Origin: Escherichia coli
Lineage (GTDB): Bacteria; Pseudomonadota; Gammaproteobacteria; Enterobacterales; Enterobacteriaceae
Assembly: GCF_044324875.1 (NCBI RefSeq)
Contig: NZ_CP172185.1
Length of the DNA stretch: 64,000 nt
Strand: one strand, 5' to 3'
The notes under the pieces: model-generated
What the model saw: only the letters and a program-made list of their open reading frames with translations
What the model was told of the DNA's origin: nothing
Databases searched by the model: none
Part shown: positions 15,775 through 25,830 of the stretch, piece by piece
Position numbering within the stretch: the stretch's first letter is position 1
Layout of the letters: the number at the start of each line of letters is the position of its first letter
Program-made: the position numbers and the translations under genes

Positions 15775-16680
15775 ATGCGTCGAACGTTTATCAAAAAAGA
15801 AGGCGTCGTCATCACGACACTGGCCCGTTATTTGTTGGGTGAAAAGTGCGGTAATCGACTGAAAACCATAGATGAGCTGGCAACTGAATGCCGTTCATCC
15901 GTTGGCCTGACGCAGGCCGCGTTGAAAACGCTGGAATCAAGCGGAGCGATACGGATTGAACGCCGTGGGCGCAATGGCAGTTATCTGGTCGAGATGGATA
16001 ACAAAGCATTGCTGACTCATGTGGATATCAACAACGTGGTATGTGCGATGCCCTTGCCCTATACCCGTTTGTACGAAGGCCTGGCGAGCGGATTGAAAGC
16101 CCAGTTCGATGGCATTCCTTTTTACTATGCGCATATGCGCGGCGCGGATATTCGCGTGGAGTGTTTACTTAACGGCGTGTATGACATGGCGGTTGTTTCC
16201 CGACTGGCGGCGGAAAGTTATCTCACGCAAAAAGGCTTATGCCTCGCGCTGGAGTTGGGGCCGCACACCTACGTTGGCGAGCACCAGTTGATTTGCCGTA
16301 AAGGCGAGTCCGCAAACGTGAAGCGCGTGGGGCTGGATAACCGTTCGGCGGATCAGAAAATCATGACCGATGTCTTTTTTGGCGATAGTGATGTGGAACG
16401 TGTCGATCTCTCTTATCACGAGAGTTTACAACGCATTGTTAAAGGCGATGTTGATGCGGTGATCTGGAACGTGGTGGCGGAAAACGAACTGACCATGCTG
16501 GGATTAGAAGCGACGCCGCTCACAGACGATCCGCGATTTTTACAGGCCACCGAAGCCGTGATCCTGACGCGAGTCGATGATTACCCAATGCAACAATTGC
16601 TGCGTGCAGTTGTTGATAAACAGGCCCTGCTTGCCCATCAACAACGAGTGGTCAGTGGGGAACAGGAACCCAGTTATTAA
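15775..16680 (+). CDS. yhfZ: YhfZ, uncharacterised protein (putative regulator) heading the yhf cluster
   Basis: 301-aa ORF; conserved position after trpS. Confidence 0.8.
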   Translation: MRRTFIKKEGVVITTLARYLLGEKCGNRLKTIDELATECRSSVGLTQAALKTLESSGAIRIERRGRNGSYLVEMDNKALLTHVDINNVVCAMPLPYTRLYEGLASGLKAQFDGIPFYYAHMRGADIRVECLLNGVYDMAVVSRLAAESYLTQKGLCLALELGPHTYVGEHQLICRKGESANVKRVGLDNRSADQKIMTDVFFGDSDVERVDLSYHESLQRIVKGDVDAVIWNVVAENELTMLGLEATPLTDDPRFLQATEAVILTRVDDYPMQQLLRAVVDKQALLAHQQRVVSGEQEPSY

Positions 16681-16696
16681 ACGAAAGGCATCTGAA

Positions 16697-16807
16697 ATGG
16701 AAACCAGACTCAACCTGCTTTGCGATGCAGGCGTTATTGATAAGGACATCTGCAAAGGCATGATGCAGGTCGTCAACGTACTGGAAACTGAGTGTCATCT
16801 ACCGGTG
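16697..16807 (+). pseudogene. yhfY: yhfY (PRD-domain protein) 5' fragment, codons 1-37, interrupted by the IS insertion
   Basis: ATG at 16697 gives METRLNLLCDAGVIDKDICKGMMQVVNVLETECHLPV, then the frame runs into IS sequence at 16808. Confidence 0.75.
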
Positions 16808-16906
16808 TGCGTATTCCGCTCTATTCGATCACGGATTGGCATCGAAGTCCGATCAGCGATTCGCATCCATTCGATCAACCGGGAACTTAACTTTTTCTAC
16901 CGCTTT

Positions 16907-17662
16907 TTAACGCGTTTTTTCGCTGCTTTCCACTACCGGGGGATTTTTCCTCAGTGACTCTCCCTGAAGGACCACTCGGTGTGAGTTATGTACCAGTCTG
17001 TCCAGGATGGCATCTGCTGTTGTTGGGTTCTCCATCAGACCATGCCATTTATCTACCGGGAACTGGCTTACCACTATCGTGCTGCTTTGTCCGTAACGAT
17101 CCTCTATGAGCTCCAGAAGGTCATTACACTGGGCGTTACTTAACTGTTCCAGCCCCAGATCGTCCAGGATTAGAACCTGTATTTTTTGCAACTGTTTCAG
17201 ATATTTCAGCCAGCTGCCATCAACACGTCCCTGAGCCAGTTGTTCCAGTAATCGCCCGGTTCTACAGTACCGGACGCTGTGTTTCTGTCGACATGCCTGT
17301 TCGCCCAGCGCATTGGCTATCCAGCTCTTGCCACATCCTGTCGGACCGGTTATCAGCAGGTTTTTCCTGTGGGTTATGTAGTGGCCGTTCAGCAGTTCTC
17401 TCATCTGTTCAGCCCGCAGACCTCTTGAGGCCGGATAGCGCAGCCCTTCCGGTGTTGCCTGGTATTTCAGGCCGGCATTTTTTCTCAACCGTGCCACACG
17501 GCTGTTTTCCCTGCTCAGAAGCTCGTCATCAACCAGCAGCGTCAGCCTTTCCTCGAACGACAGTTCGTCGTAGGTCTGAGGCGTTTCCCGCTGCCGTATC
17601 AGGCTCCCGGCCATCGCCGGGAGTTTCAGTTGGGTCAGTTTGTTTAACAGGTTATCACTCAT
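16907..17662 (-). CDS. istB: IstB helper ATPase (AAA+, DnaC-like) of the IS21-family element
   Basis: Track ORF is extended; likely start ATG at 17662 (MSDNLLNKL...); Walker A GPTGCGKSW and Walker B LILDDLG. Confidence 0.85.
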   Translation of the reverse strand: MSDNLLNKLTQLKLPAMAGSLIRQRETPQTYDELSFEERLTLLVDDELLSRENSRVARLRKNAGLKYQATPEGLRYPASRGLRAEQMRELLNGHYITHRKNLLITGPTGCGKSWIANALGEQACRQKHSVRYCRTGRLLEQLAQGRVDGSWLKYLKQLQKIQVLILDDLGLEQLSNAQCNDLLELIEDRYGQSSTIVVSQFPVDKWHGLMENPTTADAILDRLVHNSHRVVLQGESLRKNPPVVESSEKTR

Positions 17663-23417: not shown

Positions 23418-23428
23418 AAGGCACGACT

Positions 23429-24733
23429 ATGGATCTGTATATTCAGATTATCGTGGTGGCGTGCCTGACGGGTATGACATCGCTTCTGGCGCATCGCTCG
23501 GCGGCTGTTTTTCATGACGGTATCCGCCCGATCCTGCCGCAACTGATTGAAGGCTATATGAACCGTCGCGAGGCGGGGAGTATCGCTTTTGGTCTGAGCA
23601 TTGGTTTTGTGGCCTCGGTGGGGATCTCTTTTACCCTGAAAACCGGGCTGCTCAACGCATGGTTACTCTTTCTTCCTACCGATATCCTCGGCGTACTGGC
23701 GATAAACAGCCTGATGGCGTTTGGTCTTGGCGCTATCTGGGGCGTGTTGATCCTCACCTGTCTGTTGCCAGTAAACCAGCTGCTGACCGCGCTACCGGTG
23801 GATGTATTAGGTAGTCTGGGGGAATTAAGCTCGCCGGTGGTTTCAGCTTTTGCACTGTTCCCTCTGGTGGCGATTTTCTACCAGTTTGGCTGGAAGCAAA
23901 GTCTGATCGCCGCCGTGGTGGTACTGATGACCCGTGTGGTCGTCGTGCGCTATTTCCCACATCTTAACCCTGAATCCATCGAAATCTTTATTGGCATGGT
24001 GATGCTGCTGGGGATCGCGATAACTCACGACTTGCGTCATCGTGATGAAAATGACATTGATGCCAGCGGGCTTTCGGTGTTTGAAGAACGCACGTCACGG
24101 ATTATCAAAAACTTACCGTATATCGCCATCGTGGGAGCATTGATTGCCGCCGTTGCCAGCATGAAGATTTTCGCCGGTAGTGAAGTGTCGATCTTCACTC
24201 TGGAGAAAGCGTACTCCGCAGGCGTAACGCCGGAACAATCGCAAACACTAATCAACCAGGCAGCTCTGGCGGAATTTATGCGCGGACTGGGTTTTGTGCC
24301 GTTGATTGCCACCACCGCGTTAGCCACCGGCGTATATGCAGTTGCGGGCTTTACCTTTGTTTATGCGGTGGGCTATCTCTCGCCGAATCCGATGGTTGCA
24401 GCGGTATTAGGCGCAGTGGTTATTTCGGCGGAAGTCTTGCTGCTTCGTTCGATCGGCAAATGGCTGGGGCGCTACCCGTCGGTGCGTAATGCGTCGGATA
24501 ACATCCGTAACGCCATGAATATGCTGATGGAAGTGGCGTTGCTGGTCGGTTCGATTTTCGCAGCAATTAAAATGGCGGGTTATACCGGATTTTCTATCGC
24601 AGTTGCCATTTACTTCCTCAACGAATCCCTGGGCCGTCCGGTACAGAAAATGGCGGCACCGGTCGTGGCAGTAATGATCACCGGTATTCTGCTGAATGTT
24701 CTTTACTGGTTTGGCTTGTTCGTTCCGGCTTAA
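23429..24733 (+). CDS. yhfT: YhfT, polytopic inner-membrane protein (putative transporter)
   Basis: 434-aa hydrophobic ORF with many predicted transmembrane segments. Confidence 0.8.
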   Translation: MDLYIQIIVVACLTGMTSLLAHRSAAVFHDGIRPILPQLIEGYMNRREAGSIAFGLSIGFVASVGISFTLKTGLLNAWLLFLPTDILGVLAINSLMAFGLGAIWGVLILTCLLPVNQLLTALPVDVLGSLGELSSPVVSAFALFPLVAIFYQFGWKQSLIAAVVVLMTRVVVVRYFPHLNPESIEIFIGMVMLLGIAITHDLRHRDENDIDASGLSVFEERTSRIIKNLPYIAIVGALIAAVASMKIFAGSEVSIFTLEKAYSAGVTPEQSQTLINQAALAEFMRGLGFVPLIATTALATGVYAVAGFTFVYAVGYLSPNPMVAAVLGAVVISAEVLLLRSIGKWLGRYPSVRNASDNIRNAMNMLMEVALLVGSIFAAIKMAGYTGFSIAVAIYFLNESLGRPVQKMAAPVVAVMITGILLNVLYWFGLFVPA

Positions 24734-24744
24734 GGAAGGCACCT

Positions 24745-25830
24745 ATGAAGACGTTTCCTCTGCAAAGCCTGACGCTTATTGAGGCGCAGCAAAAGCAGTT
24801 TGCGCTGGTGGACACGATTTGCCGCCATTTTCCCGGCAGCGAGTTTCTTACCCGCGGGGATTTGGGCTTAACGCCGGGGCTGAATCAACCGCGCATTACC
24901 CAGCGAGTGGAACAGGTGCTGGCTGATGCATTTCACGCACAGGCTGCGGCGCTGGTACAGGGCGCGGGTACTGGCGCGATCCGTGCGGCGTTGGCGGCTT
25001 TGCTCAAACCGGGGCAGCGTCTTCTGGTGCATGACGCGCCTGTTTACCCGACGACTCAGGTCATTATTGAGCAGATGGGGCTGACGCTTATTACTGCTAA
25101 TTTCAATGACCTGTCGGCACTTAAGCAGGTCGTCGAAGAGCAACAACCGGATGCGGCTCTGGTGCAGCATACGCGCCAGCAGCCGCAGGACGGGTACATT
25201 CTGGCAGATGTGCTGGCAACGTTGCGCTCGGCTGGCGTTCCTGCATTAACCGATGACAACTATGCGGTGATGAAAGTGGCGCGAATTGGCTGCGAATGCG
25301 GGGCAAATGTCTCGACTTTTTCCTGCTTCAAGCTGTTTGGGCCGGAGGGGGTTGGCGCGGTGGTAGGCGATGCCGATGTTATTAGTCGGATTCGCTCCAC
25401 GCTCTACTCCGGCGGCAGCCAGATTCAGGGCGCTCAGGCGTTGGAAGTCTTGCGTGGGTTGGTGTTTGCGCCAGTGATGCACGCGGTGCAGGCGGGGGTA
25501 TCTGAACGGTTGCTGGCTTTACTTAACGGTGGCGCAGTGGCGGAAGTGAAAAGCGCGGTGATTGCCAATGCGCAGTCGAAGGTGTTGATTGTGGAGTTTC
25601 ATCAGCCGATTGCCGCCAGAGTACTGGAAGAGGCGCAAAAGCTCGGTGCCTTGCCTTACCCGGTCGGTGCAGAGTCGAAATATGAAATCCCGCCGCTCTT
25701 TTACCGTCTTTCCGGAACGTTTCGCCAGGCGAATCCGCAACTCGAACATTACGCGATTCGTATTAACCCAAATCGCAGCGGTGAAGAGACGGTGCTGCGG
25801 ATTTTGCGTGAGAGTATTGCCAGTATTTAA
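24745..25830 (+). CDS. yhfS: YhfS, PLP-dependent aminotransferase-fold protein
   Basis: 361-aa ORF; last gene of the yhf cluster. Confidence 0.85.
   Translation: MKTFPLQSLTLIEAQQKQFALVDTICRHFPGSEFLTRGDLGLTPGLNQPRITQRVEQVLADAFHAQAAALVQGAGTGAIRAALAALLKPGQRLLVHDAPVYPTTQVIIEQMGLTLITANFNDLSALKQVVEEQQPDAALVQHTRQQPQDGYILADVLATLRSAGVPALTDDNYAVMKVARIGCECGANVSTFSCFKLFGPEGVGAVVGDADVISRIRSTLYSGGSQIQGAQALEVLRGLVFAPVMHAVQAGVSERLLALLNGGAVAEVKSAVIANAQSKVLIVEFHQPIAARVLEEAQKLGALPYPVGAESKYEIPPLFYRLSGTFRQANPQLEHYAIRINPNRSGEETVLRILRESIASI

Follow-up and report, generated by a model that had tools for sequence, protein, structure and literature searches.

The eight genes yhfZ-yhfY-yhfX-yhfW-php-yhfU-yhfT-yhfS of Escherichia coli raise the question of which compound their products handle and by what route. 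This question was addressed computationally for the copy of the cluster located at positions 15775-25830 of a 64,000-nucleotide stretch of E. coli DNA (assembly GCF_044324875.1, contig NZ_CP172185.1), referred to here as the window. Although E. coli is studied better than any other bacterium, these genes persist among its unknowns. Crystal structures exist for three of the proteins: the entries for YhfX (4KBX) and YhfS (4J8L) are titled 'uncharacterized protein', those for Php (1BF6, 4LEF) 'phosphotriesterase homology protein', and the three enzymes are known only from such structural-genomics entries. The initial annotation of the locus regarded substrate and pathway as unassigned, and a search of 8 million full texts indeed yielded no paper assigning either. 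The matches consisted of strain lists, omics tables, Bacillus namesake genes and a peptide-resistance screen that lists yhfZ. Because the genes are already catalogued the cluster itself is not a discovery, and it fits no characterised pathway or transporter family. The answer proposed here, which we hold with moderate confidence, is that the yhf genes constitute a self-contained, laterally mobile catabolic operon that is linked to the phosphotransferase system (PTS) and would process a phosphorylated amino compound in the manner of the nag, aga and dga systems.

The locus had been described as a small-molecule catabolic module of eight co-oriented and tightly packed genes. All eight were found on the + strand. 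The yhfX and yhfW genes are immediately adjacent (gap of 0 nt), yhfW and php overlap by 4 nt, and the remaining intergenic gaps are 10-17 nt, except for the 83 nt that separate yhfY from yhfX. Seven genes are full length and yhfY alone is destroyed, by the insertion sequence ISSso4. The conservation of the arrangement was assessed in a scan for YhfT relatives that covered one genome per species (100,044 genomes) and returned 538 pattern-matched stretches, 500 of which were confirmed. The counts given below for 80 loci refer to the best 80 of these 500, which belong to Enterobacterales, Vibrionaceae, Sebaldella, Clostridia and Bacilli; gene absences among them are partly due to contig ends. YhfU and YhfT are present in all 80 loci, Php in 77, YhfX in 75, YhfZ in 71, YhfW in 70, YhfY in 69 and YhfS in 38. 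In every locus (80/80) the cluster genes that were detected share one strand, although at least eight different gene orders occur. The yhfU gene directly precedes yhfT in 78 loci, and yhfZ almost always heads the cluster in the 71 loci where it is present. This co-occurrence is far above chance, and inspection of gene neighbourhoods showed that the yhf genes stay together across several phyla. Metagenomic YhfT homologues of 27-32% identity are still found beside genes for DUF2620, metalloenzyme, phosphotriesterase (PTE), YhfS and PRD proteins, and yhfX is retained next to them as well. The invariant core is yhfU followed by yhfT, nearly always with yhfX, and the conserved unit consists of yhfU-yhfT-yhfX plus php, yhfW, yhfY and yhfZ, excluding yhfS and the neighbouring fructoselysine (frl) genes. 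Gene architecture and co-conservation thus support the catabolic module proposed in the initial annotation, with the refinements described in the following paragraphs.

Several of the absences are genuine variants. Most Yersinia loci are without yhfW (L037, L039, L041-L044, L047 and L048), Enterovibrio (L059, L064 and L069) retains only yhfU-yhfT-yhfX-yhfW, and yhfS is missing in Yersinia and Vibrionaceae. The last two groups, together with its count of 38 among the 80 loci, place yhfS outside the conserved core. At the other extreme, the yhfU-yhfT pair is found alone in loci L089 (9586-11341) and L090 (2322-4077), between mnmE and an SMC-like gene and with no enzyme genes nearby; the pair is therefore a functional unit independent of the enzymes, in keeping with a role in transport. 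In locus L092 (1661-8649) a CUT1-type sugar ATP-binding cassette (ABC) importer, composed of a binding protein and two permeases, precedes genes for YhfT, a PTE, YhfX and HPr, and a DUF2620 gene is missing. YhfT can thus be found in the absence of YhfU if a different uptake system is encoded. Within E. coli, the yhfX-yhfS block (19788-25830) is covered to at least 80% in 5,060 of 5,426 complete genomes (93%), and about 6.5% of them are without it. The block is more polymorphic than its flanks: its best identity is 98.4%, 1,008 genomes reach only 90-95%, and no complete genome is at least 99% identical, a level that hundreds of genomes reach in the flanks.

A functional connection to frl was considered and rejected on the basis of comparative genomics. 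The adjacency pointed out in the initial annotation is physically real, with frlR to frlA lying downstream of the yhf genes on the minus strand and trpS lying upstream of them, but co-conservation with yhf is absent. Among the 80 species loci, frl genes occur in two, and one of these is a 27%-identity FrlR-like match in a Vibrio locus. Homologues of FrlR, FrlD and FrlB adjoin the cluster only in the E. coli loci L001 and L008, and no frl gene was found beside it in Citrobacter, Klebsiella, Buttiauxella, Yersinia, Vibrio (other than the FrlR-like match), Firmicutes or the Escherichia loci L005 and L006. Since the adjacency is limited to some Escherichia, it carries no functional weight.

The family assignments made earlier for YhfX, YhfW and Php were borne out by comparison with solved structures, family profiles and conserved residues. 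The yhfX gene (19788..20951, + strand) is intact and encodes a 387-aa pyridoxal phosphate (PLP) enzyme of fold-type III, the alanine-racemase fold. The protein matches PDB entry 4KBX with E = 2.5e-251, the next matches of the family profile are alanine racemases (E ~2e-5) followed by D-threonine aldolase, and Lys61 is invariant. A fold-level relation to Ala_racemase_N was found, and YhfX falls in no characterised racemase family (32.2 bits against the Orr model NF040742, cut-off 480). By these profiles YhfX is a distinct family of fold-type III PLP enzymes. The intact yhfW gene (20952..22178, + strand) specifies a phosphopentomutase-like metalloenzyme of the alkaline-phosphatase superfamily, 408 aa in length, that passes NF009049, a model built on YhfW-type proteins, with 733 bits. 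It stays below the cut-offs of the DeoB models TIGR01696 (143.5 bits vs 341.2) and NF003766 (179.7 vs 256) and matches phosphopentomutases in PDB with E ~1e-30. Across 72 family members, conservation is 95% or higher for the motifs D10, D83-T84-x2-G-H, QETDLxGH, ADHGNDP and HTRE, which map onto the metal ligands and the Thr nucleophile of phosphopentomutases. YhfW retains every metal and nucleophile motif of these enzymes and looks competent, as do YhfX and YhfS with their invariant Lys residues and Php with its solved binuclear structure.

Php is encoded by an intact gene (22175..23053, + strand) and is a 292-aa hydrolase of the phosphotriesterase-homology type, with a binuclear metal center, in the amidohydrolase superfamily. 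E. coli Php reportedly hydrolyses phosphorylated glyceryl acetates, for which the phosphate is required, and is said not to open the lactones tested; this work, from the Raushel laboratory, reportedly left the physiological substrate open. Multicopy php is also said to rescue a pdxB block, which shows promiscuous side activities. The protein matches the solved binuclear hydrolase entries 4LEF and 1BF6 (E ~1e-193). It passes only its own model, NF007373, with 647 bits, and is far below the other PTE branches, with 94.6 bits for the phospho-furanose lactonase model (cut-off 630) and 101.4 bits for OPH (cut-off 500). The eukaryotic Php homologue PTER hydrolyses N-acetyltaurine (PMC11374699) and is also an N-acetyl-beta-alanine hydrolase (PMC13311154).

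The accessory enzyme YhfS (24745..25830, + strand; 361 aa, intact) had been described as an aminotransferase-fold PLP protein. It is a PLP enzyme of fold-type I, as shown by the match to 4J8L (E = 1.9e-223) and by its Pfam domains, YhfS-like_C together with Aminotran_1_2, Aminotran_5 and Cys_Met_Meta_PP, but its closest relatives are found in the Cys/Met gamma-lyase family and not among the classical aminotransferases. The family profile matches methionine gamma-lyases with E = 6e-12 (5DX5, 5.7e-12), cystathionine gamma-synthase is also near, and Lys196 is invariant. YhfS belongs to no characterised lyase or synthase family, the best score being 38 bits for a methionine gamma-lyase model with a cut-off of 549.7, and on these scores it is a related but distinct family.

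The initial annotation correctly described the yhfT product as a polytopic membrane protein but made no comment on yhfU, which together with yhfT is the invariant heart of the cluster. YhfT (23429..24733, + strand; 434 aa, Pfam YhfT) is a presumed permease with an internal repeat that divides it into two homologous halves. The family is rare, with 303 cluster representatives (50% clustering) among 1.84 billion proteins. No solved structural relative was found, and YhfT is in no known IIC family, its match to Enzyme IIC (EIIC) being not significant. YhfU (23064..23417, + strand) is a 117-aa DUF2620 protein with the RpiB/LacAB fold, which was established by structure comparison only: the hhalign comparison with E. 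coli RpiB (probability 1.2%) and the Pfam LacAB_rpiB match (E = 0.16) are not significant. The invariant Cys52 (alignment numbering) sits in a glycine-rich loop within a C-N/E-T/S-G-x-G motif. Hhalign pairs this motif with RpiB Cys66, as do phmmer and Pfam in weak matches; none of these sequence matches is significant alone. YhfU thus has in common with the RpiB/LacAB isomerases the RpiB fold and the catalytic Cys of the C-G-T-G-x-G loop. In RpiB, an N-terminal Asp-His, a His-Asn and C-terminal Arg/His residues have catalytic or phosphate-binding roles. YhfU, in contrast, is about 30 residues shorter and is without these residues: it starts with MKKIGVAGLQ, has no His-Asn before the AFG motif and ends at residue 117. 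Another difference from the isomerases is that the yhfU gene is always paired with a membrane-protein gene. The putative uptake unit formed by YhfU and YhfT appears to belong to no known Enzyme II family.

Two cluster products have the features of regulators. The intact yhfZ gene (15775..16680, + strand) encodes a 301-aa GntR-type winged-helix regulator with a YhfZ_C domain that scores 373.9 bits against NCBIfam NF041241, YhfZ_full (cut-off 260). YhfY had been called a PRD protein, and its profile does align over the whole PRD. The matches are to the PRDs of LicT, BglG-family proteins and GlcT, with E = 4e-8 to 1e-5 (LicT 1TLV, 4.1e-8; 3GWH, 2.9e-7; GlcT 3RIO, 9.6e-6). The invariant residues His48, Ala52 and Arg55 (H-x3-A-x2-R) align with the motifs of the phosphorylated His100 and His207 of LicT. 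At the position of the second PRD histidine, E. coli and other Proteobacteria have Asn108, several Clostridia have His and two Bacilli have Tyr. YhfY therefore resembles the BglG/LicT-type regulators in its full-length PRD alignment and in the invariant His that falls on the phosphorylatable His of LicT. Unlike them, it consists of one PRD and has neither an RNA-binding nor a DNA-binding domain. As for YhfZ, two Photobacterium loci carry a second paralogue beside a Lac/Cel-family PTS set, which suggests that YhfZ-type regulators control more than one PTS-linked module.

No link to the PTS had been noticed in the initial annotation. Recurrent HPr, Enzyme I (EI) and EIIC neighbours were found when the surroundings of 94 loci were compared. 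HPr paralogues with an intact GLHxRPA site are encoded directly after yhfW or yhfX in L077, L079, L080 and L092, and the L077 protein scores 73.4 bits against TIGR01003 (cut-off 47.9). An EI gene overlaps the end of yhfW in L074. Lac/Cel-family EIIC genes, in some cases accompanied by IIB and IIA genes, adjoin the cluster in 10 loci, and EIIC of the Lac family was the only flanking gene recurring in at least three genus groups when flanking open reading frames (ORFs) were clustered with a 100-aa threshold, which excludes HPr. The operon-internal HPr and EI genes of L074, L077, L079, L080 and L092 are only circumstantial with regard to a phosphoenolpyruvate (PEP)-dependent phosphorylation of the substrate. 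In addition, a nagB gene that scores above the TIGR00502 cut-off lies directly after the cluster in the Bacilli Thalassobacillus and Melghirimyces (L076 and L078), which differ in the order of yhfW and yhfX.

Other neighbours were recorded in the same comparison. In Vibrionaceae, a Lac/Cel-family IIB-IIC-IIA set and a conserved 296-aa protein with no NCBIfam match adjoin the yhf cluster (L062, 17211-21293; L063; L070, 3127-7217; L050, 4258-7153; L057). An amidase-signature-like gene of about 315-345 codons lies right after yhfT in L093 (4771-7004), L094 (3256-5489) and L061 (11347-12378); in L093 and L094 the yhfT gene concerned is a second paralogue. An amidase-like protein is fused to YhfT in Clostridium citroniae (AFDB G5HJH7), so the pairing of permease and amidase recurs. 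In the metagenome-assembled locus L085 (11815-17917), genes for PRD, DUF2620, YhfT, PTE, YhfS and YhfX proteins are followed on the same strand by three ATP-grasp genes and an MFS transporter gene.

The scheme that we propose is built on the observed gene content, co-conservation, three fold assignments, catalytic residues, PRD His alignment, and PTS and nagB neighbourhoods. YhfZ would control transcription, as its family and its position at the head of the cluster suggest. YhfY would probably report the PTS phosphorylation state or the substrate flux through phosphorylation of His48. YhfU and YhfT, whose genes are paired, would act as the uptake unit and may take part in phosphoryl transfer. 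Php would then hydrolyse an acyl (ester or amide) or lactone bond beside an anionic group, most likely phosphate. By analogy with its superfamily and with the N-acetyltaurine activity of PTER, this step would free an amine or open the molecule. YhfW, in which the catalytic residues are all kept, would move or transfer phosphate. YhfX would perform PLP chemistry at the amine-bearing carbon (epimerisation, racemisation or elimination), and YhfS may add a second PLP step in some lineages. The product would enter central metabolism, possibly as an amino-sugar phosphate, an exit suggested by the nagB genes that two Bacilli carry behind the cluster. From these data we infer transport, phosphotransfer, the sequence in which the steps follow one another and the chemical class to which the substrate belongs. 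The gene set suggests an acylated or esterified phosphorylated amino compound. On the basis of PTER activity and the reported preference of Php, candidate substrates are N- or O-acylated amino-sugar phosphates; amino-sugar acids; glycerol phosphate or ribitol phosphate esterified with an aminoacyl or acetyl group, of the kind found in teichoic-acid fragments; and N-acetylated amino-phosphonates or amino-sulfonates. The activity of PTER and the amidase-like genes beside or fused to YhfT may reflect a common theme of amide or ester hydrolysis.

The proposed pathway resembles several characterised systems without coinciding with any of them. The nag and aga systems, nagE-nagA-nagB for N-acetylglucosamine and aga for N-acetylgalactosamine and galactosamine, follow the same logic of PTS-linked uptake, unmasking by an enzyme of the amidohydrolase superfamily, amine removal or rearrangement and a local repressor. 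No yhf protein is orthologous to theirs, however, the amine chemistry in yhf would be PLP-dependent (YhfX with or without YhfS), and yhf has an extra phosphopentomutase-like enzyme and an uptake unit that appears to fall in no known Enzyme II family. The D-glucosaminate pathway of Salmonella, dgaABCDEF, includes a mannose-type PTS, the PLP ammonia-lyase DgaE and the aldolase DgaF. The likeness consists in the delivery by the PTS of a phosphorylated amino compound that is deaminated by a PLP enzyme; the differences are that DgaE is SelA-like and of fold-type I, whereas YhfX is of fold-type III, and that yhf is without an aldolase and a mannose-type PTS. In L-ascorbate utilization (ula/sga), the compound enters through a PTS-type permease as a phosphorylated cyclic ester, and its opening by a metal hydrolase is the first step. 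The characterised phospho-sugar lactonases of the PTE branch of Php fit the same pattern, but UlaG is in another superfamily and the ascorbate pathway has no PLP enzymes. PTER is of the same PTE-like binuclear (beta/alpha)8 family as Php and removes acetyl from a short anionic amino compound. It differs in being eukaryotic, in having no operon context and in that the anion is a sulfonate or carboxylate, compared with what is presumably a phosphate for Php. Finally, the EF_0829/AHA_3910 cluster (TIGR03577-03582) comprises a PRD protein, a Gly-rich SFCGS protein, DUF4310/4311/4312 membrane proteins, a SelA-like PLP enzyme and a KDPG-aldolase-like protein. To our knowledge this cluster is itself uncharacterised. 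Its architecture parallels that of yhf, with a small PRD protein, a small Cys/Gly-rich protein, one or more membrane proteins, one or more PLP enzymes and a hydrolase. YhfY scores 26.5 bits against the EF_0829 PRD model, below the family cut-off of 69.35, and one YhfU-family member matches Pfam Gly_rich_SFCGS with E = 8e-4. These two matches make for a weak link between yhf and the EF_0829/SFCGS/DUF4310-4311 cluster.

Several observations weigh against a PTS-linked catabolic operon as proposed here. The PTS genes are found in a minority of the 94 loci (HPr in 4, EI in 1-2, EIIC in 10), and genes for EI, HPr and EIIA are lacking from the E. coli/Shigella cluster itself, where no IIA-family protein was found and YhfY, the PRD protein, is alone in having a conserved His. 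The loss of Php in Enterovibrio and of YhfW in most Yersinia indicates that neither step is obligatory. The neighbours are mixed, some being of sugar type (CUT1-type binding protein, PTS genes, nagB) and others of amino-acid type (SBP_bac_3, APC permease, ATP-grasp ligases), and expression, phenotype and inducer data are absent from the literature searched. The PTS genes could also mean more than a link. YhfY, YhfU and YhfT could be the IIA-, IIB- and IIC-like parts of an unrecognised type of PTS Enzyme II, in which phosphate would pass from HPr~P to His48, then to the YhfU Cys and on to the substrate, so that Php, YhfW and YhfX would receive an obligatorily phosphorylated compound. The PRD, Cys and membrane proteins can be called the most constant trio of the cluster, with yhfU glued to yhfT; dedicated HPr or EI paralogues lie inside the operon in 5-6 Firmicute loci, and the top membrane-protein matches of YhfT, all weak, are elevator-type carriers that include the glucose and chitobiose EIIC. 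The phosphate that Php reportedly requires on its substrate would also fit. The EIIC match is not significant, however, and we know of no PRD that acts as a phosphocarrier to a substrate. Locus L092 has YhfT, Php, YhfX and HPr with an ABC importer in place of a DUF2620 protein, and the ordinary Lac-family IIB/IIC/IIA set next door in several loci could be the real PTS partner. We consider such an Enzyme II unlikely. The probability that we would assign to its broader form is similarly low: a fifth PTS type, or a PTS-driven uptake machine, with a two-repeat membrane protein of unsolved fold as its permease, that would supply a pathway whose PLP chemistry is new. The phosphorylated amino compound concerned could be an amino-sugar phosphate, for instance, or an aminoacyl or acetyl phospho-polyol that undergoes epimerisation or elimination with PLP.

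The amino-acid-type neighbours lead to a different question, whether the substrate is a sugar derivative at all. The cluster could serve a non-sugar amino acid or derivative, such as a D-amino acid, a basic amino acid or its lactam or ester, or an N-acetylated amino-sulfonate or amino-phosphonate. The PTS link would then be catabolite control only, with YhfT/YhfU as a secondary carrier, YhfX as a racemase, Php as a deacylase and YhfS as a gamma- or beta-lyase. The nearest relatives of YhfX are indeed alanine racemases and, weakly, ornithine racemase, and those of YhfS are methionine gamma-lyase and cystathionine gamma-synthase; both N-acetyltaurine and N-acetyl-beta-alanine are substrates of PTER (PMC11374699, PMC13311154). 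Partners of the amidase type are met repeatedly, SBP_bac_3, APC permease, formamidase-like and ATP-grasp ligase genes are found nearby, and one distant YhfT homologue adjoins an Orn/Lys/Arg decarboxylase. What such a module leaves unexplained is the competent phosphopentomutase-like enzyme present in 70 of the 80 loci, the RpiB-fold partner of the permease and the operon-internal HPr/EI, Lac-family EIIC and nagB genes, and we regard it as quite improbable. A non-catabolic function (salvage, repair or detoxification), or decay to a remnant in this lineage, seems very unlikely. About 6.5% of complete E. coli genomes are without the block, which shows unusual polymorphism, the reported multicopy rescue by php points to promiscuous side activities, yhfY is knocked out here and the literature searched reports no phenotype, but the other seven genes are intact, their catalytic motifs are conserved across phyla and the block is kept in 5,060 of 5,426 E. 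coli genomes. A dedicated regulator, an uptake unit, a hydrolase and PLP enzymes are moreover the standard architecture of inducible catabolism.

The insertion in yhfY is the sole structural difference between the 64-kb window, which between mrcA and tuf follows the gene order of the E. coli chromosome with 99-99.8% identity, and E. coli. The 2,639-bp element is ISSso4 of the IS21 family (16808..19446, - strand). It has TG...CA termini with terminal inverted repeats at its ends, contains istA (19325..17679, - strand) and istB (within 17905..16907, - strand), and is 99.4-99.9% identical to E. coli copies annotated 'IS21 family transposase' and 'ISSso4 family helper ATPase IstB'. It splits yhfY after codon 37 and is flanked by the 6-bp target-site duplication CCGGTG (left copy 16802..16807, right copy 19447..19452), which is present once at the insertion point in the intact E. 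coli locus L001. Alignment to this locus defines a 5' fragment of yhfY (16697..16807, + strand; codons 1-37), with the translation METRLNLLCDAGVIDKDICKGMMQVVNVLETECHLPV, and a 3' fragment (19453..19704, + strand; codons 38-120) that holds the invariant PRD His48, so that the first helix of YhfY is parted from the His48-bearing portion. Among 5,426 complete E. coli genomes, none has this junction, although the query 16700-19800, which is mostly ISSso4, is covered to 80% or more at other sites in 215. An ORF of 97 codons (19411-19704) has its ATG within the right end of the element and continues, in the yhfY reading frame, through the 3' fragment. If the end of the element supplies a promoter, this ORF could yield a PRD protein that is truncated at its N terminus and still bears His48. 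One paper quotes operon lists in which yhfX-yhfS is a separate transcription unit, and for this reason the insertion may have caused a loss of regulation rather than of expression. A different IS21-family transposase gene lies directly downstream of yhfW in the Vibrio locus L050 (14165-15679) and represents another, independent case of an IS21-type element bordering the cluster.

A scan of the locus for promoters and terminators found no convincing internal terminator, and it was uninformative on promoters, since promoter-like sites were fewer than in shuffled sequence. A search of this region and of seven related loci against Rfam gave nothing above threshold, and no riboswitch, apart from an unrelated T-box in L081. 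A REP/BIME-like palindromic element in the yhfS-frlR interval (25873..25932) delimits the operon and has no part in the pathway. It gives sub-threshold matches to Rfam naRNA4 on both strands (33.8 and 24.3 bits vs a gathering score of 59.5). One published list includes a BIME-type attenuator cluster in which yhfZ is involved (PMC2965389).

These results narrow the search for the function of the yhf genes by defining the conserved unit, by tying it to HPr, EI, EIIC and nagB genes and by recognizing YhfU as an RpiB-fold Cys protein, and the yhfY gene disrupted by ISSso4 offers a natural regulatory mutant for comparison. If the uptake unit proved to be a new type of Enzyme II, the PTS paradigm would be extended. 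If it did not, the pathway would still probably contain an unassigned PLP reaction and a new transporter fold.

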